Shown here piece by piece: positions 1 through 17,695 of a stretch of DNA of 17,695 nucleotides (position 1 is its first letter; each line of letters begins with the position of its first letter). The DNA comes from a virus (taxonomy: Duplodnaviria > Heunggongvirae > Uroviricota > Caudoviricetes), in IMG/VR virus record IMGVR_UViG_2778261667_000007, positions 1 through 17,695 of that record; one strand, given 5' to 3'. The notes under the pieces were generated by a model. That model saw nothing but the letters and a program-made list of their open reading frames with translations, was not told the origin of the DNA and searched no databases. The translations under genes were made by a program, and so were the position numbers.

Positions 1-21
1 TACCTCTTGCTTCGGTCTCGT

Positions 22-100
22 CCACATTCTCTCTTTCTTTTTTTTTTTTTTTTTACTCCACCCCACACCCACCATCCTCACCCCCTCTCTTTTCGCGGGC
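22..100 (+). repeat. Polypyrimidine low-complexity tract with a T17 homopolymer (38-54) followed by a C-rich stretch; G-rich on the minus strand
   Basis: Read directly: ctctttc + 17 T + actccaccccacacccaccatcctcaccccctctc. Minus strand carries G runs (ggggg, ggg, gggg). Confidence 0.9.
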
Positions 101-176
101 GGCGTCAGATTTTGATAAGAAACAAAGCAAATACTGAATATGCGTCGGTAAACTTGAAAACAATAGGGGGTGATTC

Positions 177-1859: not shown

Positions 1860-1872
1860 CCGGAGGGAAATA

Positions 1873-2871: not shown

Positions 2872-2874
2872 TTG

Positions 2875-2900
2875 CGTTGAAAAATTAAATTTCTAACATA
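2875..2900 (-). promoter_or_regulatory. Recurrent motif copy 1 (minus orientation): TATGTTAGAAATTTAATTTTTCAA
   Basis: Reverse complement of 2875-2900 reads tatgttagaaatttaatttttcaacg, near-identical to the motif at 16362-16384 (tatgttagaaaactaattttccaa). Confidence 0.4.
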
Positions 2901-2917
2901 GTGTATTTATATACACT
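2900..2917. promoter_or_regulatory. Perfect 7-bp inverted repeat AGTGTAT-ttat-ATACACT, candidate dimeric regulator site; three GATC sites follow at 2921-2949
   Basis: Read directly; a related half-site (GTGTATAAATCCACTG) lies at 3011-3026 on the other side of the terminator, and GTGTAT recurs at 17641-17646. Confidence 0.3.
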
Positions 2918-2984
2918 GTTGATCCTGGTAGATGGGATCGAGTAGGATCGCGGTCACTGCTCCGGTAGCGACGGCTAAAAAAGC

Positions 2985-3010
2985 AAAAGCCGCTGAGAAG
3001 CGGCTTTTTG
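2985..3010 (+). terminator. Rho-independent terminator (bidirectional-looking)
   Basis: Stem gccgct (2989-2994) / agcggc (2999-3004), loop gaga, then TTTTT (3005-3009); the A-run upstream (2985-2988) gives a U-tract on the opposite strand too. Confidence 0.8.
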
Positions 3011-3070
3011 GGTGTATAAATCCACTGCCATAGATTTATACGGTAGATAGATTTTTCACGGAACTATCTG

Positions 3071-4033
3071 ATGAGTATTTTAAATTCAGTTCCAGTAACT
3101 TTCAACACTTCTGAGTATAAAAACAACACTGAATACCACAAAAAAATCAAAGGTCATCAGTTGAGTTTTTTTGCTCGTCATAGCGGTTTTCTTTCCCCTT
3201 CACATAGCGCCATTATTGCCGAGTTCGCCAACCTGGCAGGGGCTACCGATGAATACATGATCCGTCGCTCATATGCTGATATGTCCGAGATTACAGGACG
3301 CAGTATTTCTACTGTGCGCCGGGCATTTACCGAAGCGACGAAGTGCGGAATGCTTGTTAAGCAGCATCAGGTAGCGAATAACAATGCTCAGGTGTGTAAC
3401 GTGTACCGGTTTACAACACAATTTCTCCACTTCATTCATATTGCAATGGAGATAGGGGGTAAGCAGGGCATCAAATTTGCCAACGCCACAAAACTGGTTA
3501 AGCAGTTGATTTCAAAAGTTCGTTATTTTTTTGAAACTGGGAACCCCCTGTTCAAATTGAACAAGCCCCCCCATGTTCAAAATGAACAGCCAATAGAAAA
3601 TAAGAGTCACTCTATAGCCAAAAGAAGAGAAAGATCATGCGCGGTTCAGCCAAAGGCTTCACCAGCAGATAGTTCTCAAGCGGATAATGGGGGGCTGGAT
3701 AAAAAAACAGTAATCAGGGAAGAACATACCAACCACTGCCTGGCGGCGGCAAAAGCGAGAGCTGCAAAGCGTCGTTCAGACGAGGGGCACGCAAAACGGC
3801 AGGCTCTGTATCGTACCGCTGAAAAGCTGGCAAAAAAATTTGCATGGATACGTAGTGCCGCTACCGCAGTGAATAAGCCTAAACAATCCAGTGCCCTGGA
3901 TTTCTCAATGGATTATTCTGGCTCCCAGGGATGTGCAACCATTGGTGAAGCCTTTGACCTGATGAAACAGCGTGGCTATCGGTCTGAATTTGACCGTGAG
4001 GATTGGTCAATACCTGCGGGATTTAGGGGGTGA
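3071..4033 (+). CDS. HTH DNA-binding protein (320 aa), candidate replication initiator or regulator
   Basis: Helix-turn-helix-like segment ITGRSISTVRRAFTEATKCGMLV; basic, low-complexity C-terminal half. The coding region contains two palindromes separated by poly-C (3549-3586). Weak SD at the start. Confidence 0.5.
   Translation: MSILNSVPVTFNTSEYKNNTEYHKKIKGHQLSFFARHSGFLSPSHSAIIAEFANLAGATDEYMIRRSYADMSEITGRSISTVRRAFTEATKCGMLVKQHQVANNNAQVCNVYRFTTQFLHFIHIAMEIGGKQGIKFANATKLVKQLISKVRYFFETGNPLFKLNKPPHVQNEQPIENKSHSIAKRRERSCAVQPKASPADSSQADNGGLDKKTVIREEHTNHCLAAAKARAAKRRSDEGHAKRQALYRTAEKLAKKFAWIRSAATAVNKPKQSSALDFSMDYSGSQGCATIGEAFDLMKQRGYRSEFDREDWSIPAGFRG
3549..3586. repeat. Two adjacent palindromes inside the 320-aa CDS: TGTTCAA-a-TTGAACA (3549-3563) and TGTTCA-aaa-TGAACA (3574-3588), each preceded by a C-run
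   Basis: Read directly from sequence ccccctgttcaaattgaacaagcccccccatgttcaaaatgaacag. Confidence 0.85.
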
Positions 4034-4086
4034 CCTGTGTGTCTACAAAACATCCCAATGATCGGAAAATGCTCGTTCGATAATTT

Positions 4087-4116
4087 GTGTTAGAAAATTA
4101 ATTTGCCGTTTCTAAA
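4087..4116 (+). promoter_or_regulatory. Recurrent motif copy 2: GTGTTAGAAAATTAATTT, with inverted partner TTTCTAA (7-bp arms TTAGAAA / TTTCTAA)
   Basis: Read directly; lies about 60 bp upstream of the predicted immI promoter. Candidate operator for a global repressor. Confidence 0.4.
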
Positions 4117-4171
4117 TCAGAATGTATGATCTGCATCATCGATTAAAGTCATCCATTGCTGAAATTTTTAG

Positions 4172-4200
4172 TTGATCTTCCATGTTTTCAGGCTTATATT
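4172..4200 (+). promoter_or_regulatory. Sigma70-type promoter (TTGATC - 17 bp - TATATT) for the c4-like / icd / ant transcript
   Basis: -35 TTGATC 4172-4177, 17-bp spacer, -10 TATATT 4195-4200; predicted TSS near 4207. Confidence 0.5.
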
Positions 4201-4299
4201 CATGCCGTCGTAGCAAATTCTGCGACCGGGTTTGACAGCCTGAATACTTACGCGGACAACCGCACATTTCCGATATTGCGGTATTTTTGTGTCCGTAAA

Positions 4300-4390
4300 A
4301 CCACGTTACGCCCGAATTATGGTGGGGCGTGATGGGGAGGCTTCGGCCTGCTGGTTTCGTAAGTGCCAGTCTGTCAACCCTGTCACGTCC
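4300..4390 (+). ncRNA. c4-like antisense regulatory RNA (immI-type); ends approximate
   Basis: Element b' CGTAAGT (4358-4364) is the exact complement of ACTTACG in the upstream leader (4246-4252) and at the icd-like SD (4429-4435); a' CTGTCAA (4371-4377) is the exact complement of TTGACAG at 4232-4238 and 4401-4407. This a1b1 - b'a' - a2b2 layout matches the P1/P7 immI architecture. Flanking hairpins: acgccc/gggcgt (4308-4330) and a UUCG tetraloop stem (4338-4349). Confidence 0.5.
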
Positions 4391-4446
4391 TGCCACCTGT
4401 TTGACAGCGGGTCGCAGGTTGTTTATCAACTTACGAGGCCGTAACT

Positions 4447-4671
4447 ATGGTTAATGCCAATCCTTGCTCACGTCCAGAATTCATCTGGCGTTTCCACTCT
4501 CTGCAAAAACACTGCGATCATTTCGCAATTGCCGCAACCGAAAAAGAAGCCCGTTCTCTGATCCCTGATCAACATGGCGTCCTGACTGGCCGTTTCTCTA
4601 CTTCCTCACAACCAAACACTAATCCCTGGTATCGCAATATTACCAATCCCGGCATTGCGGAGGCACACTGA
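4447..4671 (+). CDS. Icd-like small protein (74 aa), first ORF of the immI-type operon
   Basis: ATG 4447 with SD gagg (4434-4437) lying inside the b2 target element; stop TGA overlaps the next gene's ATG (TGATG at 4669-4673), indicating translational coupling as in P1 icd-ant. Confidence 0.5.
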   Translation: MVNANPCSRPEFIWRFHSLQKHCDHFAIAATEKEARSLIPDQHGVLTGRFSTSSQPNTNPWYRNITNPGIAEAH

Positions 4672-5378
4672 TGGAAATCTGCATTCTTGAAAAGCCATCA
4701 ATGACTAGCATTGAGATCGCGGAGCTGGTGGGAAGTCGTCACTCTGATGTTAAACGCAGCATCGAAAGACTTGTTGCTAAAGGAATTATCCAACATACGC
4801 CATTGGCTACAGTTGAGAATAATCAATCACTTAGCCCTAATAAATACACAAAAGCCTATTTCTTCGAAGGCGAACAAGGCAAACGCGATAGCATCATTGT
4901 CGTCGCGCAGCTCTCTCCGGAATTCACCGCCCGGCTGGTGGACCGCTGGCGCGAACTGGAAGAACAAGCACGCCAGCCGTTGACCGAAATAGAGATGATC
5001 GCCGCAATGGCTGCAAATGCAGTTCAGCAGCAAAAGCGGCTTCATGCTGTTGAGTCAAAGGTTAGCCAGGTCGCTGAAACCGTCGAGAAAATAAAGAAAG
5101 GCAATATTCCGGAAGGTTACATTGGCTACCGCCAGTTGGCGGCGAAATGCGGCCTGACTGAAGCCAAATGCCGCAACCTTGTCAACGCTTACCGGATCCC
5201 CACCGATACACATGAGTTTTTAACTCCCGAGGGGGTATTGTCGCGTCGTTCCATCGTGGCCTTATCTCCCTTCATGAATGCTTTTAACCGGATGATGTCG
5301 GAGGCTGAACACCGAGGAAAACGCTGGTATCACCCCAAAATGGGGCAATTCCAGGTGATCGGTTGGGGAGGTGAGTGA
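4671..5378 (+). CDS. Rha-family phage regulatory protein / putative antirepressor (235 aa)
   Basis: N-terminus MTSIEIAELVGSRHSDVKRSIERL matches the Phage_pRha signature (TS..IAE..GkRH.dV.R.I..L). Start overlaps the stop of the upstream small ORF. Confidence 0.6.
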   Translation: MEICILEKPSMTSIEIAELVGSRHSDVKRSIERLVAKGIIQHTPLATVENNQSLSPNKYTKAYFFEGEQGKRDSIIVVAQLSPEFTARLVDRWRELEEQARQPLTEIEMIAAMAANAVQQQKRLHAVESKVSQVAETVEKIKKGNIPEGYIGYRQLAAKCGLTEAKCRNLVNAYRIPTDTHEFLTPEGVLSRRSIVALSPFMNAFNRMMSEAEHRGKRWYHPKMGQFQVIGWGGE

Positions 5379-5575
5379 TGGACATCATGCAGGCGGTAAA
5401 AAAAATCAGGGAAGGACAGGCTGAAGTGTGCCGCCGTAAAGCATGGAGTGTTGGTGTATGGGCCTGGCCTGATAATTACTCTACTACCGGATGGTTTTGT
5501 ATTAATGGACTCCAGATCCGGGAAGTTGATTTATCGACGGCTGATATAGTCGGTAATGATTGGATCGTGACTTGA
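5378..5575 (+). CDS. DUF2829-like small protein (65 aa from ATG 5378; ORF track gives GTG 5375), possible Tad2-like anti-defence sponge
   Basis: Pattern IMQAVKKIREGQAEVCRRKAW ... VDLSTADIVGNDWIV resembles the DUF2829 consensus (FGEALEALKAGKKVARKGW ... DLLAEDWEIV). GGAGG SD at 5367-5371 sits 6 nt before ATG 5378; ATG overlaps the upstream stop (TGATG). Confidence 0.5.
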   Translation: MDIMQAVKKIREGQAEVCRRKAWSVGVWAWPDNYSTTGWFCINGLQIREVDLSTADIVGNDWIVT

Positions 5576-5583
5576 AGCGTGAT

Positions 5584-5607
5584 GCCCCGGCCAGGCCGGG
5601 GCTTTTT
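5584..5607 (+). terminator. Rho-independent terminator shared by convergent genes
   Basis: Stem gccccgg (5584-5590) / ccggggc (5596-5602), then TTTTT (5603-5607). The T-run overlaps the stop codon of the minus-strand peptidase gene. Confidence 0.75.
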
Positions 5608-6092
5608 CATGCCTCATTAGTTGAGGTTGCTGCGTCTCCGAATGGTAACAGAGCGGTATTGCGTGGTTCGCCAGCAGGCCAGCGATAGCCAGACACTCTT
5701 GATGTTGGGAATGCGCGAATATTAACCGCATCCCCCTGGTTCCCACCCAAGACAAGCAGATCGCCATTGGCGCGGCGTCCGACAACAAAGCCTACGTGCC
5801 CACCGCCTACGCGGGTAAATACAACGATACATCCGTATGCCGGTGTATCTAATTTCTCGCCCCAATCCAGATAGGATTTTGCCGACTCAAATCTTGTTGA
5901 GCGGATGCCTACACGTTCCAGCATTGCACCGACAAATGCTGCGCACCACGGCGTTTCATCGTCTTTAATTCCGCCGCGCTTGATGTCGCGCCAGAACTGA
6001 ACGATTTCAGGGTTGTGTTTAGCGCCTTTTATTTCAGTCAGGCCAATGTGCTTACGGGCTTCAATTAGCCAGCGAGGTTCAATGTTTGCCAT
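5607..6092 (-). CDS. CHAP / NlpC-P60-like peptidase (TIGR02594-like phage protein), putative cell-wall hydrolase (161 aa)
   Basis: Conserved-looking Cys and His motifs (DETPWCAAFV, GGGHVGFVVG, LVLGGNQGDAVNI, GYRWP). SD ggag 8 nt upstream of ATG 6092. The start lies within about 20-40 bp of the predicted IS right end. Confidence 0.6.
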   Translation of the reverse strand: MANIEPRWLIEARKHIGLTEIKGAKHNPEIVQFWRDIKRGGIKDDETPWCAAFVGAMLERVGIRSTRFESAKSYLDWGEKLDTPAYGCIVVFTRVGGGHVGFVVGRRANGDLLVLGGNQGDAVNIRAFPTSRVSGYRWPAGEPRNTALLPFGDAATSTNEA

Positions 6093-6104
6093 ATTTTTCT
6101 CCCG

Positions 6105-6330
6105 GTCATGGGTTAATAAGTAGGCAAACTATGGGGAGTATGTGATTTTGACGGTAGTATCGTCCCCGTGACTACTCCCCGCTCTGTCTGGCGAGGCTTC
6201 CCACTTCTTAGGCAGCAACCGTCTGTATGACGGATTTACGCTGGCCTCCATGGACAGAAACGACGAGTCCCGCCGCCTGTAGTTCCAGTATTCCTTTTTG
6301 CCGGATATTGAGCGCCGCATTGATGTCGCG
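6105..6330 (-). ncRNA. Candidate omega-RNA (reRNA) guide scaffold of TnpB, overlapping the tnpB 3' end and IS right end; extent approximate
   Basis: Established architecture of IS200/IS605 elements (omega-RNA derived from the tnpB 3' end and RE) plus the multi-stem structure seen at 6134-6181. Not confirmed by covariance model. Confidence 0.3.
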
Positions 6331-7383
6331 ATCATGTTCAATACTGCATTCCGGGCATCGCCAGATGCGTTTATGAAGCGGCATTTCCGGCATTTTGTAA
6401 CCACAACAATGGCACGTTTTCGAACTGGCAAACCACTGGTCGAGTTTTACCAGGTGAACGCCTTTTTCCGCTGCCTTGTACTCCAGCTTTGTGATGAAGC
6501 TATGCCAGCCTGCATCACCTATCGCTCTTGCCAGATTGTGGTTTTTCATCATGTTGGCTGTTTTCAGCGTCTCGACAATTACCGCTTGGTTTTCGTCAAC
6601 AATTGCACGAGAGAGCTTGTGTTGAAAATCAGCACGGGCATTAGCCACCCGTTCGTGTAACGCTGCCAGACGGATTCTGGCCTTTTTACGATTCGCGCTT
6701 CCCTTTTGCTTGCGGGATAAGGCTTTTTGTTTGCGTCGCAAATTACGGCTGGCATTGATGAGATGGCGGGGATTTGCAATTTTTACCCCATCAGACTTGA
6801 TGGCAAAGTGCGATAATCCCATATCTATCCCCGTCACGCGGGATATCATGGAAGGTCTGGCTGGCGTTTCCATGCCATCATCGCAGAGTAGCGATGCATA
6901 ATATTTCCCCGTCGCAGAACGAGTGATAGTGATGCTTTTCAGCTTTCCATGAAGTTCACGATGAAGGCGTGCCTCAATCGGGGAAAGTTTGGGGATTTTG
7001 ATGGCATTATCCAGCACCTTAACTCCGACACAGTGATAGCTGGATTGCCAGCCGTTCTTTCTCTTGAAAGTCGGAAACCGGGCTTTCAGCTTCGGATTAA
7101 AAAAGTTGGAAAATGCCACATCAAGATTAATTACCGCCTGTTGCAATGCCATTGAATCAAACTCTTTGAGCCAGGCATACCTGCGGGACTTTTTGGCCAC
7201 AGACAACAACGGTTTCAGATCGTTACGCGGACTTAAATTTACTCCGTGTCTCTGGTAAGCATGTTTTTTGATGTGAAGAGCTTTATTGTACGCAAAGCGT
7301 ACCGCGCCGAACTGGGCATTGAGATACTTTGCCTGTTCCGGTGTTGAATAGATGCGTACTTTTGTTGCTCTTAACATAGTCAC
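6208..7383 (-). CDS. tnpB: IS200/IS605-family TnpB (RNA-guided RuvC-like nuclease), 391 aa
   Basis: RuvC-I (TGIDMGLSHFA), RuvC-II (VIVETLK), zinc finger (CHCCGY ... CPECS) and RuvC-III (HDRDINAALNI) in canonical order. Start is GTG at 7383 or ATG two codons later (7377). Confidence 0.9.
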   Translation of the reverse strand: MTMLRATKVRIYSTPEQAKYLNAQFGAVRFAYNKALHIKKHAYQRHGVNLSPRNDLKPLLSVAKKSRRYAWLKEFDSMALQQAVINLDVAFSNFFNPKLKARFPTFKRKNGWQSSYHCVGVKVLDNAIKIPKLSPIEARLHRELHGKLKSITITRSATGKYYASLLCDDGMETPARPSMISRVTGIDMGLSHFAIKSDGVKIANPRHLINASRNLRRKQKALSRKQKGSANRKKARIRLAALHERVANARADFQHKLSRAIVDENQAVIVETLKTANMMKNHNLARAIGDAGWHSFITKLEYKAAEKGVHLVKLDQWFASSKTCHCCGYKMPEMPLHKRIWRCPECSIEHDRDINAALNIRQKGILELQAAGLVVSVHGGQRKSVIQTVAA

Positions 7384-7571
7384 TGCTCATTGGTACAGGT
7401 TTTTATGCTAACACCGTAATAATATTTTTAAAGCCCTGTGGGCTTTTCCGCCGTTCCTCCCCGCCAGCACTGGGCGAGGGTTCTCGGCGGTTTTCGCTGA
7501 AAATAACATTCTCCATACCCTCTCAACCGTACCGCATAGCGGAATTTTTACGGTTTAGAGGGGGAAATCCT

Positions 7572-10500
7572 TTGGACAAACTACTTCATTCAATCAGTGA
7601 AGCCTCCAGCTTAGGCGAACTGATTGAGATTGTTAGTCGGTTGCATAAATTACGTGCTGTTGCGACCTTTGGTGTCAGGAAAGCCGATGGCGTCAGTATT
7701 CAGAAAACACGCCGGGCAGCAAACAACGCCGCAGTAAATCTTCTTAATTCCCTTCCTCCCGGTTTCGATGGGGCGAAATTAACTGACGAACAACGTCAGA
7801 TTCTTGCCGGGTATACCGGTGAAGGCGGCCTGACAGATGGTGAGGGCAGCCAATACGAATACTACACGCCACAGTTTATGGCTGAAGGTATATGGGATCT
7901 GTTTGCTGACTACGGTATTGATGGCGGGCACGTACTGGAACCATCAGCGGGCACAGGTATTTTCCAGGAGACAAAACGGCAGGGCATGATAATGACCAGC
8001 GCCGAACTGTCTCCGATTTCCGGTCGAATAAACCAGCTTTTGCACCCGGAAGACGATGTGAATATCGGGGCGTTTGAGGCGCTGGCGGCGAAAGACGCAA
8101 TGTATGATCACGCTGTTGGTAACGTACCGTTTGGTGAAGGGCGTTCCGGTGTCGCCGGGCTTGATCCGGCATATGCAAACGAGAAGAACGTTGGCAATTA
8201 CTTTGTGTTGCGCACGATCGACAAGGTTAAGCCTGGTGGACTAATTGTATTGGTGGTGCCGAATGGCATGACCGATGGTACGAAATACAAAAAATTGCGC
8301 GATAAAGTCAGCCGTAAAGCGGAATTTTTGGGCGCACATCGTATGCCTTCTGGTACGTTCAGCGAATCTGGTACAGATACCGTGGTGGACGTATGGGTAT
8401 TGCGTAAACACCCGGAAACCTTCCTGGAGATGATCCCCGACACGGATGATGCAATGCTCAAATCGGCAAACGTCCTTTGGGATACCTTCCTCAAAGGGAA
8501 ATGGTTTACAACCGAAGGGAAGCGATTTGTTTACGGCGACATGGAACGCACCAGCTTCCGCAATACCCTGGTGGTGAAAAAGGACGGTCGTGTATCCAAT
8601 GAGTCGATGAAAACCGCGTTATCACGCCGCTTTGAAAGCCGTATTAATTGGGATTTGCTCGGAGTAACTACCCAGGCATGGCAGGGCGCAAAAGTAGGGG
8701 ATAAGCGTCTTGTAGGCGGTATCTGGCATGAGTTTGATGGCCTGAAATGGGTTAAGGACACGACAACCGAATCCTCCGCGCTTGATGTAAGTCGATATGG
8801 TGTTTCGACGTTTGGCGATCTGCAGATCGCGTTCCAGTCAACAAACGGGATTCTGGCTTTGTCATGGGACCAGATATCGGCGATCGCGTCCGACTATCCA
8901 TCGGTTGTCAGTGATGAAGTGGCAGCAATGATTCGCTTTGCTGGCAAACAGCGAGAAAAAGACAGGGAGCGCGTTATGCGCGGTGCGTTGATAGGGCAGT
9001 TGATCAACAAGGCACTTGATTTGCGTAACCTGGGGGTGAACGTTGATGACAAACTGGCAGATGCATCCCGCCTGGCGGCAGCAGAAGTTGCGAAGTATGG
9101 ACCACCGCACGCGATTAAGCTGAATGGGCTTGCAGAAGCTGGAGCTAAAAACTGGATGACGTTCACTGGCAACGTGAAACAGGATGGTTCCACTTCTGAC
9201 CTTCTGGCAGGGCGACTTGATGTAACGGATGGTGCTGCCGGTATTGACTTTACACGTCCTGAACAAGTGATAGCACATCTTTTCAGTGATGTAGCCCTTA
9301 ATCCTATAACGCTGGGCGACTTTCGTGAGGCGTTTGCTGGTGAACTGCCAGAGGACGACGACGCGGCCCTTGAATACCTGGCGAAATTTGATGATATCGC
9401 TATTGATGGGTATGGCTGCCTGCTGCTGATGGACCGCGCCACCAGCGGCGATATTGCAACCAAAACAGCATTGCTGATGGGCTGGCGTGATGCGTCAACA
9501 GGTGAGCAGAAATCGAACTTTGAGCGTCAGTTGGCGAAAATCGAAGAGAAACGCATTTTCACGCCACTAAATAAAGTCACCGTTAATCTGAATGCCCGCT
9601 GGCTGGATCGCCGTTTGATAAAAGAGTTCCTGGCAGAGCAGGGCTATGACGAGTTTAAGTACACTGAACCTGATCTGAAGGTCGTCGATGGCATTCTGGT
9701 ATCTCCGGACGATTACGAAGGTAAGGACGGTGTATTTACCGGCTATCAGCTACGAACCGTAAACGGCAAAAACGGGAATGAGTTCAAGAAGGCCAACAAT
9801 AAAGACGGCTTCCTGAACCAGTTAGAAAACTACCTGAACGGCGTCAAACCGCGCGGGCAGAACGCTAACGAGTACCTGGATAAGATTGCTCAACTTGAAG
9901 TTAGCTTTAACGACTGGTTACGCACCCACCCGCAGGCTGATCAGATAGCCCGTGACTATAACGACGCATTCAATGGCTTCATTCCGTTCACGCACTCTAA
10001 CGCACCGCTTGGCCTGGAAGGGATTAGTGGAAAGCGCATTCCTCTGACTTATCAGAATGAAGAAGTTCGGCGCTTGTCAGAAGATGGGCGCGGCATCATG
10101 GGATTTGGTACCGGGCTGGGTAAAACCACGACCGCGCTTGCGCTTGAGGCGTATAACTTCGAAACAGGTCGCACTAAACGCACGTGTATTGTTGTTCCGA
10201 AGGCGGTTTATCAGAACTGGTATCACGAGGCACAGAGCTTCTACAGTGCTGATGCCTTCGCCAATATGATGTTTATCGGTCTGGATGAAGTTCGTGATGA
10301 AGACGGCAATATTCTGACCGCGCCGGTGCTTGATGAAAATGGCGAACCCCGCCTGGACAGTAACGGGCAGCCTCTTACCCGCAATGTGGTGAAAGAATCC
10401 GCCAGCGCAGTTATCGTTCAGCGCATGAACATGATCCCGTCGTCAAATTGGCGAACGGTCATCATGACGAAAGAGCAATTCGCGTCTATCCCGCTACGAG

Positions 10501-13500
10501 AAGAAACCATTGAGGAAAACTCACAGCAAGCTGTCTTTAATGCTGTGGAAATGGGGCGTCTTGACCTGGCGTCCGGTAAACACCGTGACGCGCAGAAGAA
10601 GAACAAGATTAAGGATCAGGCAGCAAATACCGGTACAACGAAGAAGCAGAATATCCCGTACTTTGAGGATATGAACTTCGATAGCGTGATTGCCGACGAG
10701 GGGCATAACTACCGAAACTCCTTTAATGCCGGGCGTGAAGCGGGACAACTGGCATATTTGCCTAACCCGGCAGTATCCAAGATGGCCCGCGACATGGCTG
10801 TAAAAGCTGCGTACATGATGAAACGCAACAACGGGCGCGGTGTAGTCATGCTGACGGCAACTCCGCTGGTGAACAGTCCGATTGATGCCTTCAACATGCT
10901 GTCTACTGTCATTCCGCAGGAAGAGTGGATGCGCATGGGCATCATTACGCCTGATGATTTCGTTCGTGTGTTTGGCAAAACAGCAACAGTTCAGGTTCAG
11001 AAAATTTCCGGTGAGGTGGAAGAGAAGCAGGGGCTGGTGGGCTTCCAGAACCTGGACGGTCTGCGTGGTATTTTCCATCGCTGGACTACTCTGAAGAATG
11101 CTGCGGACGTCGGGGCGACGGTTAAAATCCCCGACATCATCGAGAACACCTTGCAGATCCCGATGACAGGGGAGCAGGAGACTGCTTATGAAGAACTTCG
11201 TAAGCGTGCTCAGGAGTTAAGTCGCAATGATGAGCTGACAGTCGATGAAAACGGGCATATCACTAACGACAAACCGGATGATTTCATCTTCTCCATCATC
11301 CGTGACATGGATAAGGTTGCTATAGACCCGGATCTGTATGCCAGTGCGATTACATTCCAGTTCCCCGTTGAGCTTGCAGACCAGGTAAAAGCTATTGCTG
11401 ATGCCTTGCCAAAAGTAGCTGGCGGTAAAGTGGCAGATGATGCAGACGAGGTCGAAGAAGATGGCGCTGGTGGGCTGGTCAGTACGCGTACCAGCAAGGT
11501 AGTGAAGACCACCTTTAGTGAACATCCGGCGCATGTTGAAATACGCGCCAGCATTGAACTGGAAACTGAAATACTGAAGGCCATTGCGGCTGCCGGTATT
11601 GATATGCAGCAGGTATCGCACCCCATCCCGCCGAAGTATGCCGCGCTGATCGAAAATCTTCGTGAAGGTCTGAAGAACGGTAAGCAGATCGTCTTTATTG
11701 ATGAAAAAGCCCAGCACCAGAAGCTGCGCCGTATTATCGCCAGTGCACTGCAAATGCCGGAGCAGGAGATAGGCATTATCAATGCGACGACCGTTAGCCA
11801 GGCTGGTGGCATCAAGCTGAAGAAGGTGAATAAGCCGACTGAACCTACTCTGAATAAAAACGGTGAATACAAAGAAGGGGCATGGGAAACCTACTACAGC
11901 AAACTTGCCCAATATGAGGATTATCTCTCAGCTAAAAATGATGCTGGCCTTGAGGGTATGGAAGGCATTGCCGCCGACTATAACGAAGGTCGCACGCGCA
12001 TCATTATCTGTAACAAGAAGGCTGAAGTAGGTATTAACCTGCATATCGGGACAACCGATATCCACCACCTGACACTACCCTGGACACCAGCCAGTATCGA
12101 CCAACGAAATGGGCGCGGTGCGCGCGTAGGTTCACCGCAAGAGAAGGTCAATGTTCACTACTACTGTGGCAAAGGCACATTTGATGATTTCCGCCTGGAT
12201 ACGCTGAAACGCAAGAAAGACTGGATCAAGATGGTGATGACCTCCGACATGTCAGAGATCGCCAATGGTGATGCGGATGATGCAGATGAACGCGCCATTA
12301 TGCTGGCAGCAAATCCGGAAGAGCGCCGCGCAATCATGGCCCGTCAGGCGCAAGAGCGTGAAGAACGCCTTAAACTGAAAGCGCAGCGCGAGGCCGGTAA
12401 TGCTCTTGATAACTACCTGAAAGCGGCTAATGCTGCCGGGAAAGATATCGGCATGATGGAGACAGAGCTGAAAAGCGCGATGGAGCAGGTAGAGCATTAC
12501 CAGCGCAATCTTGACGACCTGATAAAAGCGGGGACGAACAGGAACGGGCAAAAATATGTTCTAGAACAGTTGCGAGACTACAGAAAACGCGCGCGGGAGC
12601 TGCGGTTTGCTATCACCAGAGCAAAAGACGCTGATACCGTTATGAAACGCTCTCGCGGTGATCTGGAACGAGCCATTAAAGCCGGTATTCTGGAGCTTGA
12701 TGCCGATGTATTACAAAACCCACAGGAATATGTGCGAACTGAGAAAAATATCTTGTTGCACAAGGGCAGCCATTATCGAGCGATCATCGATGAGAATCAC
12801 AACACAACAGCAATTGTTCGTGTGACAGACATTGATGCGGAAAGAGGCGGATGTACTTGCCGCATATCCTGGCTGGATGTGGCTAGTCGTTACTCTCGCT
12901 CCCCCGGGACAGCATTGTATTTACCCTTTAACTTGATAATTGAAGCTGTATCTTTTGAAGAAGGAGTTGCTGAATCGCGTGAAACAGCCGCACGCGGTGT
13001 TCAGAGTCACCAATTATCAACAACACTTACTCGCGCTCAGTTCTATGATGCCATTCGAAATGGAGTCATGAAGGTTACCACCGGCAAGCCTGGTTTGGCA
13101 TGGGGCGGTGGGCAAGCGATTAAATACTGGGCCTATCGCACCGACGATGGTCAGATCGCTCTGTCAACGGCCTATGATGGCGTGATAGGCCAAAAAATCG
13201 GGCGAGCATCGGATATAGCACCTGAACGATGGATATATCCAGATGGCAACGATGAGGCGCTGAAGCGTGAAGTGGCAAAAATACAAGCCAGTGATAACCC
13301 GCTGAATATCGTGGACGGTGAGGGATTCCTCCAGGCATTGTATGGATATGATTACATCCAGGGAATGCAGGCATGGGGAGCGCAAGCCACAATGGATGAT
13401 GTTACCCAGGAATTTGAAAACTGGATGGCAGGGCGTGGTCTTTCTGGTCGTTCGCTTAACAAAGTCACGTCTGAAGATATTCTTAGCCTGTTCCGAAAAC

Positions 13501-14411
13501 CGTCCGGAGAAGGTCTGGAATTATTCTGGAAGACCGTGGTGGCATACCGTTTATTCCGGGGCAGGATGAAAGCCTTTAGCAACACTGATGACATTGAACG
13601 GATGTTTAATCAGGTGAAGGTCGCGAAAATTACGGCGAAAATCGAGAAGACACGAGCTGCGCTGGTGGCCTGGCGCGATGCATTGTTTGAGCAATATAAA
13701 TCACTCAGTGATGCAGATGGATGGGCTGCACTGGAACAGTTGGCGAATAATGGGGTAGATGGAGCGAAACTCGCCATTGTTCAGGCTGATAACCCTCTGG
13801 AATCACCGGCAGCACAATGGATTAAGGTGGGGGCTGTCATCAATGCATTTGATGAGAAACACATTAGTAAAGACGATTTTGCTGATGCTGTTTCTATTAA
13901 TCGCCTGGTAGAAATGGCTACCCGCCGCGCCCGTGAGTTGAAAGACGGTGACTATGTGAATGAGTTGCCGGATGCGCTCAAATCAGCAACGTGGCAAGAC
14001 TATGTATCGCTGAAAAACGGCGGTGCTACCGAATCAGAGATCGCTAAAAGACTTGAGCAGGTTGAAAGCAAAAGAGAAGAGCAGGCGGCAGTGGCTGACG
14101 CCAGAGCTGATGAAGCGGCGAATGATGACTATATCATTGTGGTTAATGATAAGCCGATTCGCGCTAAGGCGCGTGTTCGCGGGCGCTGGTGGAGCGTCAG
14201 CGAGGACGTCGGTGCGGTTTATCTCATTGCCGACCAACCTGGTTCCTCGACAATACGGAACGCCAAAGACGCGATTAAGAAGATTGGCGGGCGTTTCTGG
14301 AATTTTGAAGTAAACCCGGTTGCTGATGTGAACTTTGACCGTCCGGCATGGATGGTATCTACGCGTTACTCGGTAGATGAACTGCGTAAAATAATCGCCG
14401 ATGCGGCCTAA
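7572..14411 (+). CDS. Giant N6-adenine methyltransferase / SF2 helicase fusion (2279 aa), DarB-like antirestriction protein
   Basis: MTase motif I EPSAGTGIF (nt ~7938-7964) and motif IV NVPFGEG (~8121-8141); helicase Walker A GFGTGLGKTT (~10101-10130), DExH VIADEGHNY (~10692-10706), motif III TATP, motif VI QRNGRGARVG (~12103-12132); coiled coil and a ~600-aa C-terminal extension. TTG start at 7572 with SD agaggggg 8 nt upstream. Size and domain order resemble phage P1 DarB (recalled, not searched). Confidence 0.7.
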   Translation: MDKLLHSISEASSLGELIEIVSRLHKLRAVATFGVRKADGVSIQKTRRAANNAAVNLLNSLPPGFDGAKLTDEQRQILAGYTGEGGLTDGEGSQYEYYTPQFMAEGIWDLFADYGIDGGHVLEPSAGTGIFQETKRQGMIMTSAELSPISGRINQLLHPEDDVNIGAFEALAAKDAMYDHAVGNVPFGEGRSGVAGLDPAYANEKNVGNYFVLRTIDKVKPGGLIVLVVPNGMTDGTKYKKLRDKVSRKAEFLGAHRMPSGTFSESGTDTVVDVWVLRKHPETFLEMIPDTDDAMLKSANVLWDTFLKGKWFTTEGKRFVYGDMERTSFRNTLVVKKDGRVSNESMKTALSRRFESRINWDLLGVTTQAWQGAKVGDKRLVGGIWHEFDGLKWVKDTTTESSALDVSRYGVSTFGDLQIAFQSTNGILALSWDQISAIASDYPSVVSDEVAAMIRFAGKQREKDRERVMRGALIGQLINKALDLRNLGVNVDDKLADASRLAAAEVAKYGPPHAIKLNGLAEAGAKNWMTFTGNVKQDGSTSDLLAGRLDVTDGAAGIDFTRPEQVIAHLFSDVALNPITLGDFREAFAGELPEDDDAALEYLAKFDDIAIDGYGCLLLMDRATSGDIATKTALLMGWRDASTGEQKSNFERQLAKIEEKRIFTPLNKVTVNLNARWLDRRLIKEFLAEQGYDEFKYTEPDLKVVDGILVSPDDYEGKDGVFTGYQLRTVNGKNGNEFKKANNKDGFLNQLENYLNGVKPRGQNANEYLDKIAQLEVSFNDWLRTHPQADQIARDYNDAFNGFIPFTHSNAPLGLEGISGKRIPLTYQNEEVRRLSEDGRGIMGFGTGLGKTTTALALEAYNFETGRTKRTCIVVPKAVYQNWYHEAQSFYSADAFANMMFIGLDEVRDEDGNILTAPVLDENGEPRLDSNGQPLTRNVVKESASAVIVQRMNMIPSSNWRTVIMTKEQFASIPLREETIEENSQQAVFNAVEMGRLDLASGKHRDAQKKNKIKDQAANTGTTKKQNIPYFEDMNFDSVIADEGHNYRNSFNAGREAGQLAYLPNPAVSKMARDMAVKAAYMMKRNNGRGVVMLTATPLVNSPIDAFNMLSTVIPQEEWMRMGIITPDDFVRVFGKTATVQVQKISGEVEEKQGLVGFQNLDGLRGIFHRWTTLKNAADVGATVKIPDIIENTLQIPMTGEQETAYEELRKRAQELSRNDELTVDENGHITNDKPDDFIFSIIRDMDKVAIDPDLYASAITFQFPVELADQVKAIADALPKVAGGKVADDADEVEEDGAGGLVSTRTSKVVKTTFSEHPAHVEIRASIELETEILKAIAAAGIDMQQVSHPIPPKYAALIENLREGLKNGKQIVFIDEKAQHQKLRRIIASALQMPEQEIGIINATTVSQAGGIKLKKVNKPTEPTLNKNGEYKEGAWETYYSKLAQYEDYLSAKNDAGLEGMEGIAADYNEGRTRIIICNKKAEVGINLHIGTTDIHHLTLPWTPASIDQRNGRGARVGSPQEKVNVHYYCGKGTFDDFRLDTLKRKKDWIKMVMTSDMSEIANGDADDADERAIMLAANPEERRAIMARQAQEREERLKLKAQREAGNALDNYLKAANAAGKDIGMMETELKSAMEQVEHYQRNLDDLIKAGTNRNGQKYVLEQLRDYRKRARELRFAITRAKDADTVMKRSRGDLERAIKAGILELDADVLQNPQEYVRTEKNILLHKGSHYRAIIDENHNTTAIVRVTDIDAERGGCTCRISWLDVASRYSRSPGTALYLPFNLIIEAVSFEEGVAESRETAARGVQSHQLSTTLTRAQFYDAIRNGVMKVTTGKPGLAWGGGQAIKYWAYRTDDGQIALSTAYDGVIGQKIGRASDIAPERWIYPDGNDEALKREVAKIQASDNPLNIVDGEGFLQALYGYDYIQGMQAWGAQATMDDVTQEFENWMAGRGLSGRSLNKVTSEDILSLFRKPSGEGLELFWKTVVAYRLFRGRMKAFSNTDDIERMFNQVKVAKITAKIEKTRAALVAWRDALFEQYKSLSDADGWAALEQLANNGVDGAKLAIVQADNPLESPAAQWIKVGAVINAFDEKHISKDDFADAVSINRLVEMATRRARELKDGDYVNELPDALKSATWQDYVSLKNGGATESEIAKRLEQVESKREEQAAVADARADEAANDDYIIVVNDKPIRAKARVRGRWWSVSEDVGAVYLIADQPGSSTIRNAKDAIKKIGGRFWNFEVNPVADVNFDRPAWMVSTRYSVDELRKIIADAA

Positions 14412-14447
14412 CAGATAAGGAGCGGCCCCAACCGGGGCCGAATTTGA

Positions 14448-14882
14448 ATGACGACATTAATTGACACTGTAAAACCGACGGAATCCTACCTTGAGGACAT
14501 TTTGCCGCAGGCGCTCAATGGCAGGAGTGAAGAGGCGTTTCTGGATGCATATCTGAATGGCATGGTGGAAAGGCTGAAACGAGATCCACAGCTTTATCAC
14601 CTCTATGGGCCGTGGTGGCCTGCGCTTAAAACGTTATTGCTGGAGCGCGGCGACATATCATTTGGACAAGTTGTAGATAGTGATGTGGCAGAGATCTACA
14701 AAATGAGTCGCCCGGCGCTTACGGTTTTAGCCGGGCATCTGTATTCGAGCGAGCGCCTGGAAAATGACGCGGTATACAATCCCGTTCATGCTCTGGAAGT
14801 TGCACCTTATGCTGATGATACAGAGCCATACGTATACACAAGTTACGATGAGTCCATAGAGAAGTATCGAATCATGGGGTAG
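14448..14882 (+). CDS. Hypothetical acidic protein (144 aa)
   Basis: ATG 14448; 24 acidic versus 12 basic residues. Sits immediately downstream of the DarB-like gene, with a GC-rich hairpin (14423-14440) between an SD (aaggag, 14417-14422) and the ATG. Confidence 0.6.
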   Translation: MTTLIDTVKPTESYLEDILPQALNGRSEEAFLDAYLNGMVERLKRDPQLYHLYGPWWPALKTLLLERGDISFGQVVDSDVAEIYKMSRPALTVLAGHLYSSERLENDAVYNPVHALEVAPYADDTEPYVYTSYDESIEKYRIMG

Positions 14883-14884
14883 CC

Positions 14885-15145
14885 ATGCGAAAGAACCGTA
14901 AGTTTACGCTCGAAGACCTGAAGGAATATTCCACATCGAAGGGGTATGTCCTTGAGTTCCACCGTTACAAGAAGGTTTTTACACTGCGAAAAGCAGAAAA
15001 ACCTGCGGCCTGGAGCTGGGTATACTTCCCTCATACAGAAGACAAACTGGTAGAGCTTGTTGACGATTTAACCTACGAAGGTTGGTTGTTCGCAATCGAC
15101 AGGACAATCAGAGAAATATCCGAACCGGATAAAATAAACCTTTAA
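14885..15145 (+). CDS. Hypothetical protein (86 aa)
   Basis: ATG 14885, 2 nt after the upstream stop, so likely translationally coupled; no recognisable motif. Confidence 0.5.
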   Translation: MRKNRKFTLEDLKEYSTSKGYVLEFHRYKKVFTLRKAEKPAAWSWVYFPHTEDKLVELVDDLTYEGWLFAIDRTIREISEPDKINL

Positions 15146-15281
15146 AAATAACAAGTTGGGTAAATGCCATGCGATTTGCCCTCCTTGTTGATTAAGGTCA
15201 CTCTTTACTCTAAAAGCAAATCCGACCTGTTGCATATAGCCCATCCTTGAGTAGTATCTCTCTTGTTTTACAAATCTAACG

Positions 15282-15776
15282 TTGTTGTTATTATTTCGCT
15301 TATTTACTATCAATGGGTGTGTTAGAAAAATAGCGCGAAAAAGAAGGCGTCGCAGTGAATATTCTGAAACATCCCCACATGCCGCAGCTCTCAGTGAACT
15401 GGAGAAAAACCCAGATCTAATCAAAAGGAACCATGAGCATTACGAGCAGGTTCGCGTCCTGGATTGGCTGTATCGCAATATGCGCTATGTGTATGAGCAT
15501 ACACACGCCACTCCCAACGGTGGTCTGCGAGGCATAAGGACGGCAATAAAGATGGTGGCAGAAGGCCAAAAGAAAGGATATCCCGATCTTTCTATAGACC
15601 TTGCTTGCGGGGGATACCACGGAATGCGCATTGAGATGAAACATGGGAGAAATCGCCTGACTCCCGAACAACTCGTCTGGATGACTCGCCTCACTGAAGC
15701 AGGCTACTACTGCTTTGAGGCGCGTAGTGCCGCTGAAGCCATAAAAGCTATCACGGAATATGTTTGTCTTGATTAA
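15282..15776 (+). CDS. VRR-NUC domain nuclease (PD-(D/E)xK); start uncertain, possible frameshift
   Basis: VRR-NUC signature HEHYEQVRVLDWL ... HATPNGG ... KKGYPDLSIDL ... RIEMKHGRNRLTPEQLVWMTRLTEAGYY. No in-frame ATG/GTG upstream of the domain; the only in-frame start is TTG at 15282 without an SD, giving an Arg-rich N-terminal extension. A GTG with good SD (aagaagg) at 15355 is in the +1 frame and stops at 15418-15420. Confidence 0.55.
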   Translation: MLLLFRLFTINGCVRKIARKRRRRSEYSETSPHAAALSELEKNPDLIKRNHEHYEQVRVLDWLYRNMRYVYEHTHATPNGGLRGIRTAIKMVAEGQKKGYPDLSIDLACGGYHGMRIEMKHGRNRLTPEQLVWMTRLTEAGYYCFEARSAAEAIKAITEYVCLD

Positions 15777-15790
15777 ACGGAGAAATCGTT

Positions 15791-15991
15791 TTGCGTTTAC
15801 TTAACGTGGCTGAACTTATCCCTGCTGGTGCTAACGTTGTTGCTCGCCGTCGCTCATGGCAGCAACCATTGTGTATTGAGTTGTTGAAACACAGCAATGG
15901 AACAATAGAGGCTCGGAATATTGTCACTGGTGATAAGGTTCACATAACTCCGGAAAGTACAGGCGCTGATGATTGGGAGTTTGTACATTGA
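15791..15991 (+). CDS. Hypothetical small protein (66 aa)
   Basis: TTG start at 15791 with SD ggag 9 nt upstream; follows the VRR-NUC stop by 14 nt. Confidence 0.45.
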   Translation: MRLLNVAELIPAGANVVARRRSWQQPLCIELLKHSNGTIEARNIVTGDKVHITPESTGADDWEFVH

Positions 15992-16287
15992 GAAAAAAAT
16001 ATTATGTGAACCTGGCGTTTGCGGATGACGCCGGGAGGACGCGGAGCATTACGCTCAACACTGCTCGTAAGGTGGTAACAGCGCCGTTAATCCGGGAAGC
16101 TCTCAGGGAACTGGATATGGGGGAGAACTCGACCCTTTTGTCGGTTAGTTGGTTAGGAAAAATGTCAGAGAAAGAATACGTAGACGGTGTCACACCAATA
16201 ACGGCAATAAGGCTAATTTCATTGCTGCAATGGGCTATCGTACCTGTATGCATTGCGTATTTGATCTACAAGACCATGACTCAATAA
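15988..16287 (+). CDS. Small membrane protein (about 99 aa from TTG 15988; ORF track start 15973), single C-terminal transmembrane helix
   Basis: Hydrophobic C-terminus ITAIRLISLLQWAIVPVCIAYLIY. TTG 15988 has SD gggag 9 nt upstream and overlaps the upstream stop (TTGA). Followed directly by a terminator. Confidence 0.5.
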   Translation: MRKKYYVNLAFADDAGRTRSITLNTARKVVTAPLIREALRELDMGENSTLLSVSWLGKMSEKEYVDGVTPITAIRLISLLQWAIVPVCIAYLIYKTMTQ

Positions 16288-16294
16288 CTGCTCA

Positions 16295-16322
16295 AAAACC
16301 CGCCGATTAGCGGGTTTTTTGT
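16295..16322 (+). terminator. Rho-independent terminator
   Basis: aaaa-cccgc-cgatta-gcggg-tttttt: 5-bp GC stem, 6-nt loop, six-T run (16315-16320). Confidence 0.85.
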
Positions 16323-16361
16323 TTATCACATCTTTCGATCCTGTTCTCATGCTAATAAAAT

Positions 16362-16394
16362 ATGTTAGAAAACTAATTTTCCAAAATTAACAGG
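16362..16394 (+). promoter_or_regulatory. Recurrent motif copy 3: ATGTTAGAAAACTAATTTTCCAAAATTAACAGG, immediately upstream of the 402-aa gene
   Basis: Contains the perfect palindrome AATTTTCCAAAATT and outer inverted arms TGTTA / TAACA; ends 8 nt before ATG 16402 (SD agga). Confidence 0.45.
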
Positions 16395-16401
16395 AACAGC
16401 A

Positions 16402-17610
16402 ATGAGTCAACAAACTGATACTTCTAATCTGGATATCATCTCAGCCGCAATTGAAACGCTGCGGACACAGATCGCTCTTATTCAAAAGCGGAATCCGGGA
16501 GATGACCTCTCCAGGCGACTGCATGAGAGCGTCATTGCCACTACAGATAACCTGGTGGCGGAAATCAACCAGCTCCTTGATGATGGGGCAGTTGATTACA
16601 ATAAGCTGGTGGATCAGTTTGAGGAATATCAGCAAGCCGTTAATGATGGCTTGATCCGTTTTTCACAAGTCACTGGCGTACCAGCGACAGTTGAAAGCTT
16701 GGGTGATGCAGTTAATCAATTTGCCGTGAATATGCGTAATGAGATCGGCAATCTGGAGGCGCGTCTTGAACAGGCAAATACACTGCGCAAATCTGCTGAA
16801 GTTGATTTGAGCCGTTACAAAAAAGACTATCCGCCCAGCCTGACAAAACGACTGGATGTTGCGGAGAAGGATAACCGCACACTGAAAAGAGAGCGTCGGG
16901 AATTAAAAGAGCGTTTAACCAAGCTAAATCAGCAATGCATTGAGTATCAAGGCGAACTCGTCACATTGCGTAAAAAGTTAGCAGCGGCGCAGAGCATTAT
17001 TGAAACATTGAAACGAGAGTGCTCACAGCTTGGCCATGATCTGAATCGCGCCTGTGGTATGGGGCAAAGGCCAGAGACATTCCCGCTCATGTATGACGGA
17101 AGAGAAGCTATTGCCTATATTCATGAGTTTCCGCATGGTCTGGTCGCGGAGACTGGGCAACGTGGCGAAGCATTGCTTACGGCAAATTACCACCAACAAA
17201 TTAGAACCAGCCGCCTGCTGACGATGGATGTGATCCCGTCAGTATGGGGAACACCACTTTACTACCGAATTCCTGGCTTCGAAACGGACTGGAATACCGA
17301 CATAGACGAATGCCTGGCAGATAAAATAATGGCGTATCTGGAGACTGATTTCCCGCGTTTGTATCGCCGGATTATGGACTCTAAGGGCGCGCCGATCGAT
17401 GAATTGAAAATGCGCCCAGAGACACTGGAGGCAATCAAGCAGACAGAGTTTGATACAGTATTCAGTGTTGCCTGTATTCCAAGCAGCTTTCATGAAAGCA
17501 TTCCGTTCATGCAAGGCGAGCGTCGTCAGGAGATCATTGATGCTTGCCGGGTATGGGCGAACGAATGGGACAAGAAGAATGGGGGCGTAGAAGATCTTTA
17601 TGGGAAATAA
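16402..17610 (+). CDS. Hypothetical protein (402 aa): N-terminal coiled coil (~200 aa) plus C-terminal globular domain, function unknown
   Basis: ATG 16402 with SD; heptad-like N-terminal half (ETLRTQIALIQK ..., RTLKRERRELKERLTKLNQQCIEYQGELVTLRKKLAAAQSIIETLKRE). Bracketed by copies 3 and 4 of the motif and preceded by a terminator. Confidence 0.6.
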   Translation: MSQQTDTSNLDIISAAIETLRTQIALIQKRNPGDDLSRRLHESVIATTDNLVAEINQLLDDGAVDYNKLVDQFEEYQQAVNDGLIRFSQVTGVPATVESLGDAVNQFAVNMRNEIGNLEARLEQANTLRKSAEVDLSRYKKDYPPSLTKRLDVAEKDNRTLKRERRELKERLTKLNQQCIEYQGELVTLRKKLAAAQSIIETLKRECSQLGHDLNRACGMGQRPETFPLMYDGREAIAYIHEFPHGLVAETGQRGEALLTANYHQQIRTSRLLTMDVIPSVWGTPLYYRIPGFETDWNTDIDECLADKIMAYLETDFPRLYRRIMDSKGAPIDELKMRPETLEAIKQTEFDTVFSVACIPSSFHESIPFMQGERRQEIIDACRVWANEWDKKNGGVEDLYGK

Positions 17611-17611
17611 T

Positions 17612-17640
17612 GTGTTAGAAATCTAATTTTAATTAACAGG
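17612..17640 (+). promoter_or_regulatory. Recurrent motif copy 4: GTGTTAGAAATCTAATTTTAATTAACAGG, downstream of the 402-aa gene and upstream of the next gene beyond the window
   Basis: Read directly; an inverted partial copy (cttaacatag, 17661-17670) lies 20 bp further on. Confidence 0.4.
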
Positions 17641-17695
17641 TGTATTGATTGTGAAAATAACTTAACATAGAATTTTCCTTGCTGGTGGAGCGTTG

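Follow-up and report, generated by a model that had tools for sequence, protein, structure and literature searches.

Does a short motif that recurs between the genes of a plasmid prophage mark the operators of a global repressor, or does it mark a class of phage-specific promoters? The question was raised by an earlier note on a 17,695-nucleotide (nt) stretch of viral DNA (IMG/VR record IMGVR_UViG_2778261667_000007, positions 1 to 17,695; hereafter "the window" refers to this whole stretch), which described a recurrent TGTTAGAAA-NN-TAATTT motif. Judged by its sequence, the window belongs to a plasmid prophage that shares about 93-94% identity with Escherichia phage D6, itself distantly related to P1. 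In megablast searches it was 94% identical to D6 (MF356679) over 92% of its length, and the DNA-level match to P1 itself was limited to the c4/icd segment, with the P1 c4-region homology starting at 4187. In P1, the C1 repressor binds about 22 dispersed asymmetric operators of 17 base pairs (bp), and RepL and Lpa are under its control (PMC8546580). We argue here, with a probability of roughly 0.85 and by analogy with P1, that the motif is the operator of a C1-family lysogeny repressor in the D6 clade of P1-like plasmid prophages.

Four exact matches to the 17-mer TGTTAGAAANNTAATTT were found in the window, and a partial copy was found as well. In order of position these putative operators are:

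2882..2898, minus strand: putative operator A, TGTTAGAAATTTAATTT, exact match, 28.4 bits
4088..4104, plus strand: putative operator B, TGTTAGAAAATTAATTT, exact match, 31.2 bits
15320..15336, plus strand: putative weak operator E, TGTTAGAAAAATAGCGC, 17.7 bits, 9-mer perfect, 3' half degenerate
16363..16379, plus strand: putative operator C, TGTTAGAAAACTAATTT, exact match, 30.1 bits
17613..17629, plus strand: putative operator D, TGTTAGAAATCTAATTT, exact match, 28.9 bits

When up to three mismatches to TGTTAGAAANNTAATTT were allowed the window held six matches, as compared with 0.66 expected, a number that was reached in none of 200 dinucleotide shuffles; the exact 9-mer TGTTAGAAA occurred five times, with 0.135 occurrences expected. 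A weight matrix of 19 columns was built from the D6 sites, and on this matrix the four exact copies scored 28-31 bits and the partial copy (15318-15336) 17.7 bits; in shuffled windows the best score had its 95th percentile at 15.6 bits. The exact matches and the matrix scores thus confirm that the motif described earlier is real and is present as four strong sites and one weak but conserved site. Overlapping matches on the opposite strand at 2873-2891 and 16370-16388 (12-15 bits) were not kept in relatives and were not counted as sites. The consensus derived from 16 D6 sites, (T)(G/A)TGTTAGAAAA-n-TAAT-w-T, is asymmetric and 17-19 bp long; the 17-mer carries about 22 bits, two more informative positions lie upstream, and the consensus TGTTAGAAAAnTAATwT has no internal two-fold symmetry. 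The sites occur on both strands, five plus and six minus in D6 and four plus and one minus in the window.

Conservation was assessed in a five-lineage alignment made up of the window, D6, E. coli CP085065 (L006), E. marmotae CP056699 and E. coli CP029365 (L008). At all five sites the motif was kept as a block while the neighboring intergenic DNA diverged, with 67 of 85 motif columns invariant over the five lineages as compared with 226 of 400 flanking columns (Fisher P = 1.3e-4). Site C was invariant in 17 of 17 columns with both flanks divergent, and site B in 16 of 17. Furthermore, some sites form tail-to-tail pairs of 17-mers with a 4-bp overlap, as seen in D6 at hrdC (64116-64145) and ppp (80709-80738), downstream of pmgS in CP085065 and in the c4 leader of CP029365. 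In the window site B alone has a partner (4109-4117), which is degenerate.

It was also considered that the repeats might not be a protein site at all, being instead a shared promoter core (TGnTAGAAA, extended -10-like) or the product of chance in AT-rich DNA. The intergenic DNA is indeed AT-rich, and TGTTAGAAA resembles TGnTAnnnT in all save the last base. Nevertheless, the counts lie above every shuffle, the 17-mer is kept as a block while its flanks diverge, its orientation is independent of gene direction, position -7 of the putative hexamer is A and not the near-invariant T, and none of these repeats was found in P1 intergenic DNA of similar composition. We therefore regard this explanation as very improbable.

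Distribution in D6 and the link to a C1-family repressor

A genome-wide motif search, as proposed in the earlier note, gave counts that beat every shuffle in the window and in both halves of D6. At up to two mismatches D6 contains 11 sites, six and five in its two halves, where 0.17 and 0.24 were expected. All 11 are intergenic in a genome of which only 10.5% is non-coding (P = 1.6e-11), and at up to three mismatches 16 of 20 sites are intergenic. One site is located 12 nt ahead of the c1 start codon. Others precede lpa, c4/icd, hrdC-dmt and the orf117-dut operon, lie between pro and repL or past ppp, and flank pmgS and ref on either side. Four of the 11 face away from the neighboring gene whose transcription they would drive, and a fifth runs into the 3' end of ref. 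The C1 operators annotated in the P1 record are Oc1, Olpa (Op94), OpmgRa/b (Op86), OpmgT (Op88), Oc4 (Op51), OrepL (Op53), Orlf (Op55), Odmt (Op68, before uhr-hrdC-dmt), Oref and Oppp, and between this map and the sites of D6 and the window there is an almost site-for-site correspondence.

D6 also encodes a candidate for the cognate repressor. The product of D6 orf1 was annotated by its authors as a prophage repressor similar to P1 C1, and both proteins match phrog_1678 end to end (E = 2.8e-170 for D6 orf1 and 2.6e-140 for P1 C1). The D6 c1 gene adjoins a lox-like site. Among IMG/VR contigs carrying a D6-type C1 (79-100% identical), 18 of 18 contained three to eight D6-type sites within 21 kb or less and none contained a P1-type site, and the site 28 nt upstream of c1 was identical in all of them. 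The PDB holds no relative of D6 orf1 or of P1 C1. The D6-like context, the synteny with the P1 operators and the presence of a C1-family protein in D6 all support the global-repressor operator, which was the first of the two possibilities raised earlier.

Could another protein, such as a co-repressor, an Ant/Rha-family regulator or a host nucleoid protein, bind the motif instead? The C1 assignment is built on position and analogy, further DNA-binding proteins are predicted in D6-clade genomes (the Rha/Ant-like protein at 4671-5378 being one example), and the motif is AT-rich like the sites of nucleoid proteins. However, the sites mirror the P1 C1 regulon, including the site 12 nt before the c1 start codon and the one before lpa, and the c1-proximal site is invariant in 18 of 18 contigs with a D6-type c1. 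At about 22 bits the motif is far more specific than the sites of IHF, Fis or H-NS. Moreover, it is absent from P1 at up to two mismatches, and since P1 shares the same host this argues against a host factor. A protein other than C1 thus appears unlikely, although somewhat less so than a repeat that is no protein site.

Several observations weigh against a C1-family operator. The product of D6 orf1 shares only 21% identity with P1 C1 and lacks a Pfam domain. The c1 gene lies outside the window, and C1-family proteins were seen in relatives only; the replicon to which the window belongs was not found among phages, plasmids, complete E. coli genomes and 31 IMG/VR loci, where the best identity was 93%. 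When the motif matrix was compared with the P1 operator at all offsets and in both orientations no significant similarity was detected, the best column correlation being 0.55 over 12 columns, and homology of the sites themselves therefore cannot be demonstrated. In addition, site B alone clearly overlaps a recognizable sigma-70 promoter, the promoter scan having given nothing above threshold over sites A, C and D, and site A is followed by a terminator, with the best candidates for a repL promoter over 100 nt away. On the other hand, because the repressor has diverged to such a degree, a different operator sequence is to be expected. That C1 is the binding protein, that its binding represses, and that it acts at sites A, C and D is what we infer.

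Late operons carry a separate motif

The alternative in which the motif represents a class of Lpa-dependent late promoters, with TGTTAGAAA as activator box and TAATTT as -10 hexamer, has some attraction. TAATTT fits TAnnnT, and a 9-mer followed by a short spacer and a hexamer recalls the P1 arrangement (9-bp box, 4 nt, -10). Sites C, D and E face the downstream gene, pmgS is a head-morphogenesis gene, and D6 Lpa, which has a PF25716 match, is only 31% identical to P1 Lpa, so that a changed box is possible. All annotated P1 late promoters were extracted and their consensus, AAGTnACTT-N4-TAnnAT, was scanned over D6 and the window. There were two matches in D6 and one in the window, none of them at the TGTTAGAAA motif.

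A different element, AAATCACA-N7-TAnnnT, was found directly ahead of 10 late transcription units of D6, from the head, tail, lysis and dar operons (prt, ddrB, lydA, R, pmgB, 23, 7, mat, orf16 and darB), co-oriented with each late gene and with fixed spacing. Its AAATCACA positions in D6 (L003/L004) are 25221, 27727, 31511, 38115, 45491, 54124, 67393, 72100, 19171 and 19215. The window has two copies:

6128-6148, minus strand: AAATCACA-N7-TAnnnT, before the hydrolase gene
7501-7521, plus strand: AAATCACA-N7-TAnnnT, before darB

This element, distinct from the box of P1, is likely to be the Lpa-dependent late promoter of the D6 clade. When 8-mers in the intergenic DNA of D6 were counted without bias, only two families were dominant, AAATCACA with 12 occurrences in 11 segments and TGTTAGAA/GTTAGAAA with 11 occurrences in 10 segments, 0.45 being expected for each; the two families match two regulators, Lpa and C1.

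The TGTTAGAAA motif was found at none of the 10 late units and lies instead before c1, lpa, c4, repL, ref and hrdC. Besides the four D6 sites that face away and the one that runs into the 3' end of ref, in the window site A faces the 3' end of pro, and some sites are palindromic pairs. Being absent from late operons and of mixed orientation, the motif cannot be a directional promoter. The promoter class put forward in the earlier note was therefore rejected, as four of 11 D6 sites face away, no structural operon is preceded by the motif, and a separate directional AAATCACA-N7-TAnnnT element occupies the late operons; we give it about as little credence as the chance explanation.

Taking the motif as the operator of a C1-family repressor, the following scheme can be proposed. 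The repressor would be made from a gene outside the window and, in the lysogen, would occupy the dispersed sites, either singly in either orientation or as tail-to-tail overlapping pairs. Lytic and early functions would thereby be held off: repL, the lytic replicon, with sites A and B on its two flanks; the immunity (antirepressor) operon c4/icd/ant, through site B lying over a P51a-like -35; pmgM through site E; pmgS through site C; and the promoter past pmgS through site D. Outside the window sites of this kind also precede c1, hrdC-dmt, ref and lpa, the gene of the late activator, and the repressor would control lpa as well as its own gene. Upon inactivation of the repressor Lpa would be made and the AAATCACA-N7-TAnnnT late promoters would be switched on. 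Such a C1/Lpa cascade would mirror that of P1.

The two late-promoter boxes of the window flank a TnpB element (about 6150-7490), which is inserted exactly between these divergent boxes; in D6 the same two boxes are only 24 nt apart (19171-19191 and 19215-19235). Related plasmids have TnpB at other places; in CP085065, for example, it lies upstream of prt, and in CP029365 it lies in the c4 leader. In the latter (L008, NZ_CP029365.1) TnpB is inserted in the immI leader, just upstream of the P51b-like promoter, and the distal end of the inserted or variant stretch carries an extra perfect palindromic operator pair, TGTTAGAAAATAAGTTTGAGTTTTCTAACA.

Sites in the window and their surroundings

As the earlier note had observed, the sites are located at operon boundaries, with site A at the end of the head genes, site B upstream of the immunity promoter, and sites C and D flanking the gene for a 402-amino-acid (aa) protein. 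Gene identities in the window were taken from the D6 annotation and from PHROG and Rfam matches, and the order prt-pro-repL-c4/icd-ant-darB-ulx-pmgM-pmgR-pmgS was confirmed. The genes and RNA elements are:

177-1859: prt
1873-2871: pro
3071-4033: repL
4194-4246: c4-a1b1
4315-4400: C4 RNA
4447-4671: icd
4671-5378: Rha/Ant-like antirepressor
5607-6092, minus strand: peptidoglycan hydrolase
6208-7383, minus strand: IS605-family TnpB
7572-14411: darB
14448-14882: ulx
about 15282-15776: pmgM (VRR-NUC)
15973-16287: pmgR
16402-17610: pmgS, 402 aa

Near the sites the following further elements were noted:

4103..4130, plus strand: sigma-70 promoter-like site TTGCCG-16-TATGAT, with the -10 TATGAT kept in the five lineages
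4109..4117, minus strand: degenerate inverted half-site, TTTCTAAAT on the plus strand, 12 bp past the 9-mer of operator B
4172..4200, plus strand: sigma-70 promoter-like site TTGATC-17-TATATT, upstream of the C4 antisense RNA module
15267-15294: promoter-like site TTTACA-16-TATTAT, about 20-35 nt upstream of operator E
17645..17673, plus strand: sigma-70 promoter-like site TTGATT-17-TAGAAT, downstream of operator D

Putative operator A lies 11 nt past the pro stop codon and 173 nt ahead of the repL start codon, a position like that of P1 OrepL (Op53). Its core, GTTAGAAANNTAA, is kept in the five lineages and its upstream flank diverges. Candidate sigma-70 hexamers over the site are present in the window and are not conserved in the other lineages, and a conserved promoter at this place was thus rejected. 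The adjoining 170-nt repL leader is almost invariant in the five lineages (window 2900-3105). Within it lie a palindrome, GTGTAT-N4-ATACAC (2901-2916), three Dam sites (GATC at 2921, 2937 and 2947) and the hairpin of a bidirectional terminator (2985-3008); the minus strand also has a promoter-like site, TTGAAA-17-TAAAAT (3105 to 3077). From these elements an antisense RNA of about 90 nt (3070 to about 2980, minus strand), covering the repL start codon, is predicted, with a fold of -31.1 kcal/mol (z = -6.3). The leader is reminiscent of P1, with its antisense promoter P53as and its Dam sites at PkilA. As one joint and tentative proposal, which we hold to be possible yet on the doubtful side, sites A and B, bracketing repL, may act by looping or as a roadblock and not by simple occlusion, and the D6 clade may provide an undescribed second C1-family specificity in which the architecture has been kept and the recognition sequence wholly replaced.

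Putative operator B follows the repL stop codon by 55 nt and precedes the immunity operon c4/icd/ant, a placement like that of P1 Oc4 (Op51) and of Orlf (Op55), which in P1 comes directly after repL. At its 3' end operator B runs over the -35 of the promoter-like site at 4103-4130, whose spacer is filled by the degenerate half-site, and occlusion of a promoter is plausible here. The inverted repeat TTAGAAA/TTTCTAA of the earlier note is real and conserved (4090-4096 and 4110-4116). The spacing of the half-site equals that of the full palindromic pairs, TGTTAGAAA-N12-TTTCTAACA, of the relatives; its sequence GTTTCTAA is kept in four of the five lineages, CP029365 having TTCCTAA, and as a full 17-mer the half-site scores below 8 bits. 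The promoter-like site at 4103-4130 is analogous to P1 P51a (P2c4) and that at 4172-4200 to P51b (P1c4), so that the layout is that of P1, where Oc4 runs into the -35 of P51a and P51b follows downstream.

The 9-mer of the weak putative operator E is invariant in the five lineages while its flanks diverge, and the E. marmotae relative has TGTTAGAAATTTAATGC. Depending on the start that is chosen, the site lies within the first codons or in the leader of pmgM, which encodes a VRR-NUC protein, in a position near the O26/Oppp neighborhood of pmgM in P1. The pmgM start is ambiguous: D6 has a TTG start equivalent to 15282, and PGAP starts in relatives lie at or after 15468. A TTG start at 15282 would place operator E in codons 13-18 and have the gene overlap the promoter-like site at 15267-15294. 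Homology of the pmgM family can be traced upstream as far as about 15366, and from 15285 to 15480 an in-frame start codon is lacking.

Putative operator C is found 23 nt ahead of the pmgS start codon and past the pmgR terminator (16294-16319), like P1 OpmgRa/b (Op86), which is annotated as "controls expression of pmgR and pmgS". The inverted repeat AATTTTCCAAAATT of the earlier note is present in the window at 16375-16388 and is not conserved in relatives. Putative operator D, placed like P1 OpmgT (Op88), lies 3 nt past the pmgS stop codon and 15 nt ahead of the -35 of the promoter-like site at 17645-17673. In CP085065 the counterpart of operator D is a full palindromic pair that ends next to that -35. 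The -10 of the promoter-like site and the adjoining TAACTTAACA are kept in five of five lineages, with TTGATT or TTGATA as -35. What had been taken for an inverted copy of the motif at 17661-17670 scores below 8 bits and belongs to this conserved promoter-like site. The spacer of the site reads AAATAACTT in the window, similar to the -22 box of P1 late promoters. In the 9022-9082 region of D6 the operator at 9066-9082 overlaps a AAATCACA late-type box at 9049-9069; the window has lost that late-type box, and the 3' half of its operator is the better one, TAATTT as compared with TAAAAT in D6.

At the left end of the window the first 122 or so nucleotides, C/T-rich with a run of about 16 T, have no match in D6-like phages or plasmids, and relatives align only from position 123 onward. 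The late-promoter box that D6 has at prt is disrupted in the window. Since positions 1-122 are without match in the relatives, prt has a different upstream neighbor here. An open reading frame of 86 aa at 14885-15145 (phrog_6844, function unknown) occupies the place that the gene for the C1 co-repressor, lxc/bof, has after ulx in P1, and showed no similarity to P1 Lxc.

Comparison with P1 and other known systems

By analogy, the motif most likely constitutes a C1-type operator set of new specificity within a kind of system that is well known from P1. It thus offers no new kind of mechanism, as a heteroimmune relative with an operator sequence of its own was to be expected. The D6 GenBank record carries no annotated operator or promoter features, and the operator sequence was not found in the searchable full-text literature; the D6 genome paper may already describe the motif. 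D6-like phage-plasmids are widespread in Escherichia and Salmonella, with matches to 80% or more of the window in at least 99 plasmids of PLSDB, and the sites may serve as a regulatory map for this group, in which promoters repressed in the prophage are separated from Lpa-type late promoters. The map predicts that there is no cross-repression through C1 between D6-clade phages and P1. Furthermore, it would supply a second natural repressor/operator pair for a family without a solved structure, which could help to explain the recognition of an asymmetric site by a monomeric repressor and could be used as an orthogonal part in vectors based on P1.

With the operators of P1 and P7 the sites share their form, asymmetric AT-rich 17-bp sequences in 11-22 copies and in either orientation, dispersed in a plasmid-prophage genome of roughly 90 kb. 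They also share their genes, namely c1, lpa, c4/immI, both flanks of repL, pmgR/S, the promoter past pmgS, hrdC-dmt, ref and ppp, as well as a cognate repressor of the phrog_1678 family. As in P1, the TTT at the 3' end of the operator enters the -35 at the immI promoter. The recognition sequence, in contrast, is unrelated. The D6 motif had no match in P1 at up to two mismatches, and the P1 operator ATTGCTCTAATAAATTT, from which the earlier note had rightly judged the motif to differ, had no match in D6 or the window at up to three mismatches, as compared with 17 in P1, and no convincing alignment of the two matrices was obtained. The system may therefore work like that of P1, and the specificity of P1 is not shared. 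Other differences are that the repressor has 345 aa, as opposed to 283 aa in P1, that no Lxc/Bof homolog was detected at the syntenic position in the window, and that operator binding has been demonstrated experimentally in P1, whereas for the D6 clade we infer it.

The tail-to-tail pairs resemble P1 Oban (Op72a/b), in which inverted 17-mers likewise share their AT-rich 3' ends and have their 5' ends outward; the overlap is 4 bp in D6 (30 bp in total) and 6 bp in Oban (28 bp in total). Like the Lpa-dependent late promoters of P1, the sites consist of dispersed copies of a 9-mer box near a TAnnnT hexamer, but unlike these promoters (AAGTnACTT-N4-TAnnAT) TGTTAGAAA is non-directional and is not found at late operons. 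With the CI/Cro operators of lambdoid phages the sites would have in common that they are bound by a repressor that maintains lysogeny and regulates its own gene. Lambdoid operators have two-fold symmetry, are bound by dimers and form clusters at two loci, whereas the sites of the D6 clade are asymmetric and scattered genome-wide.

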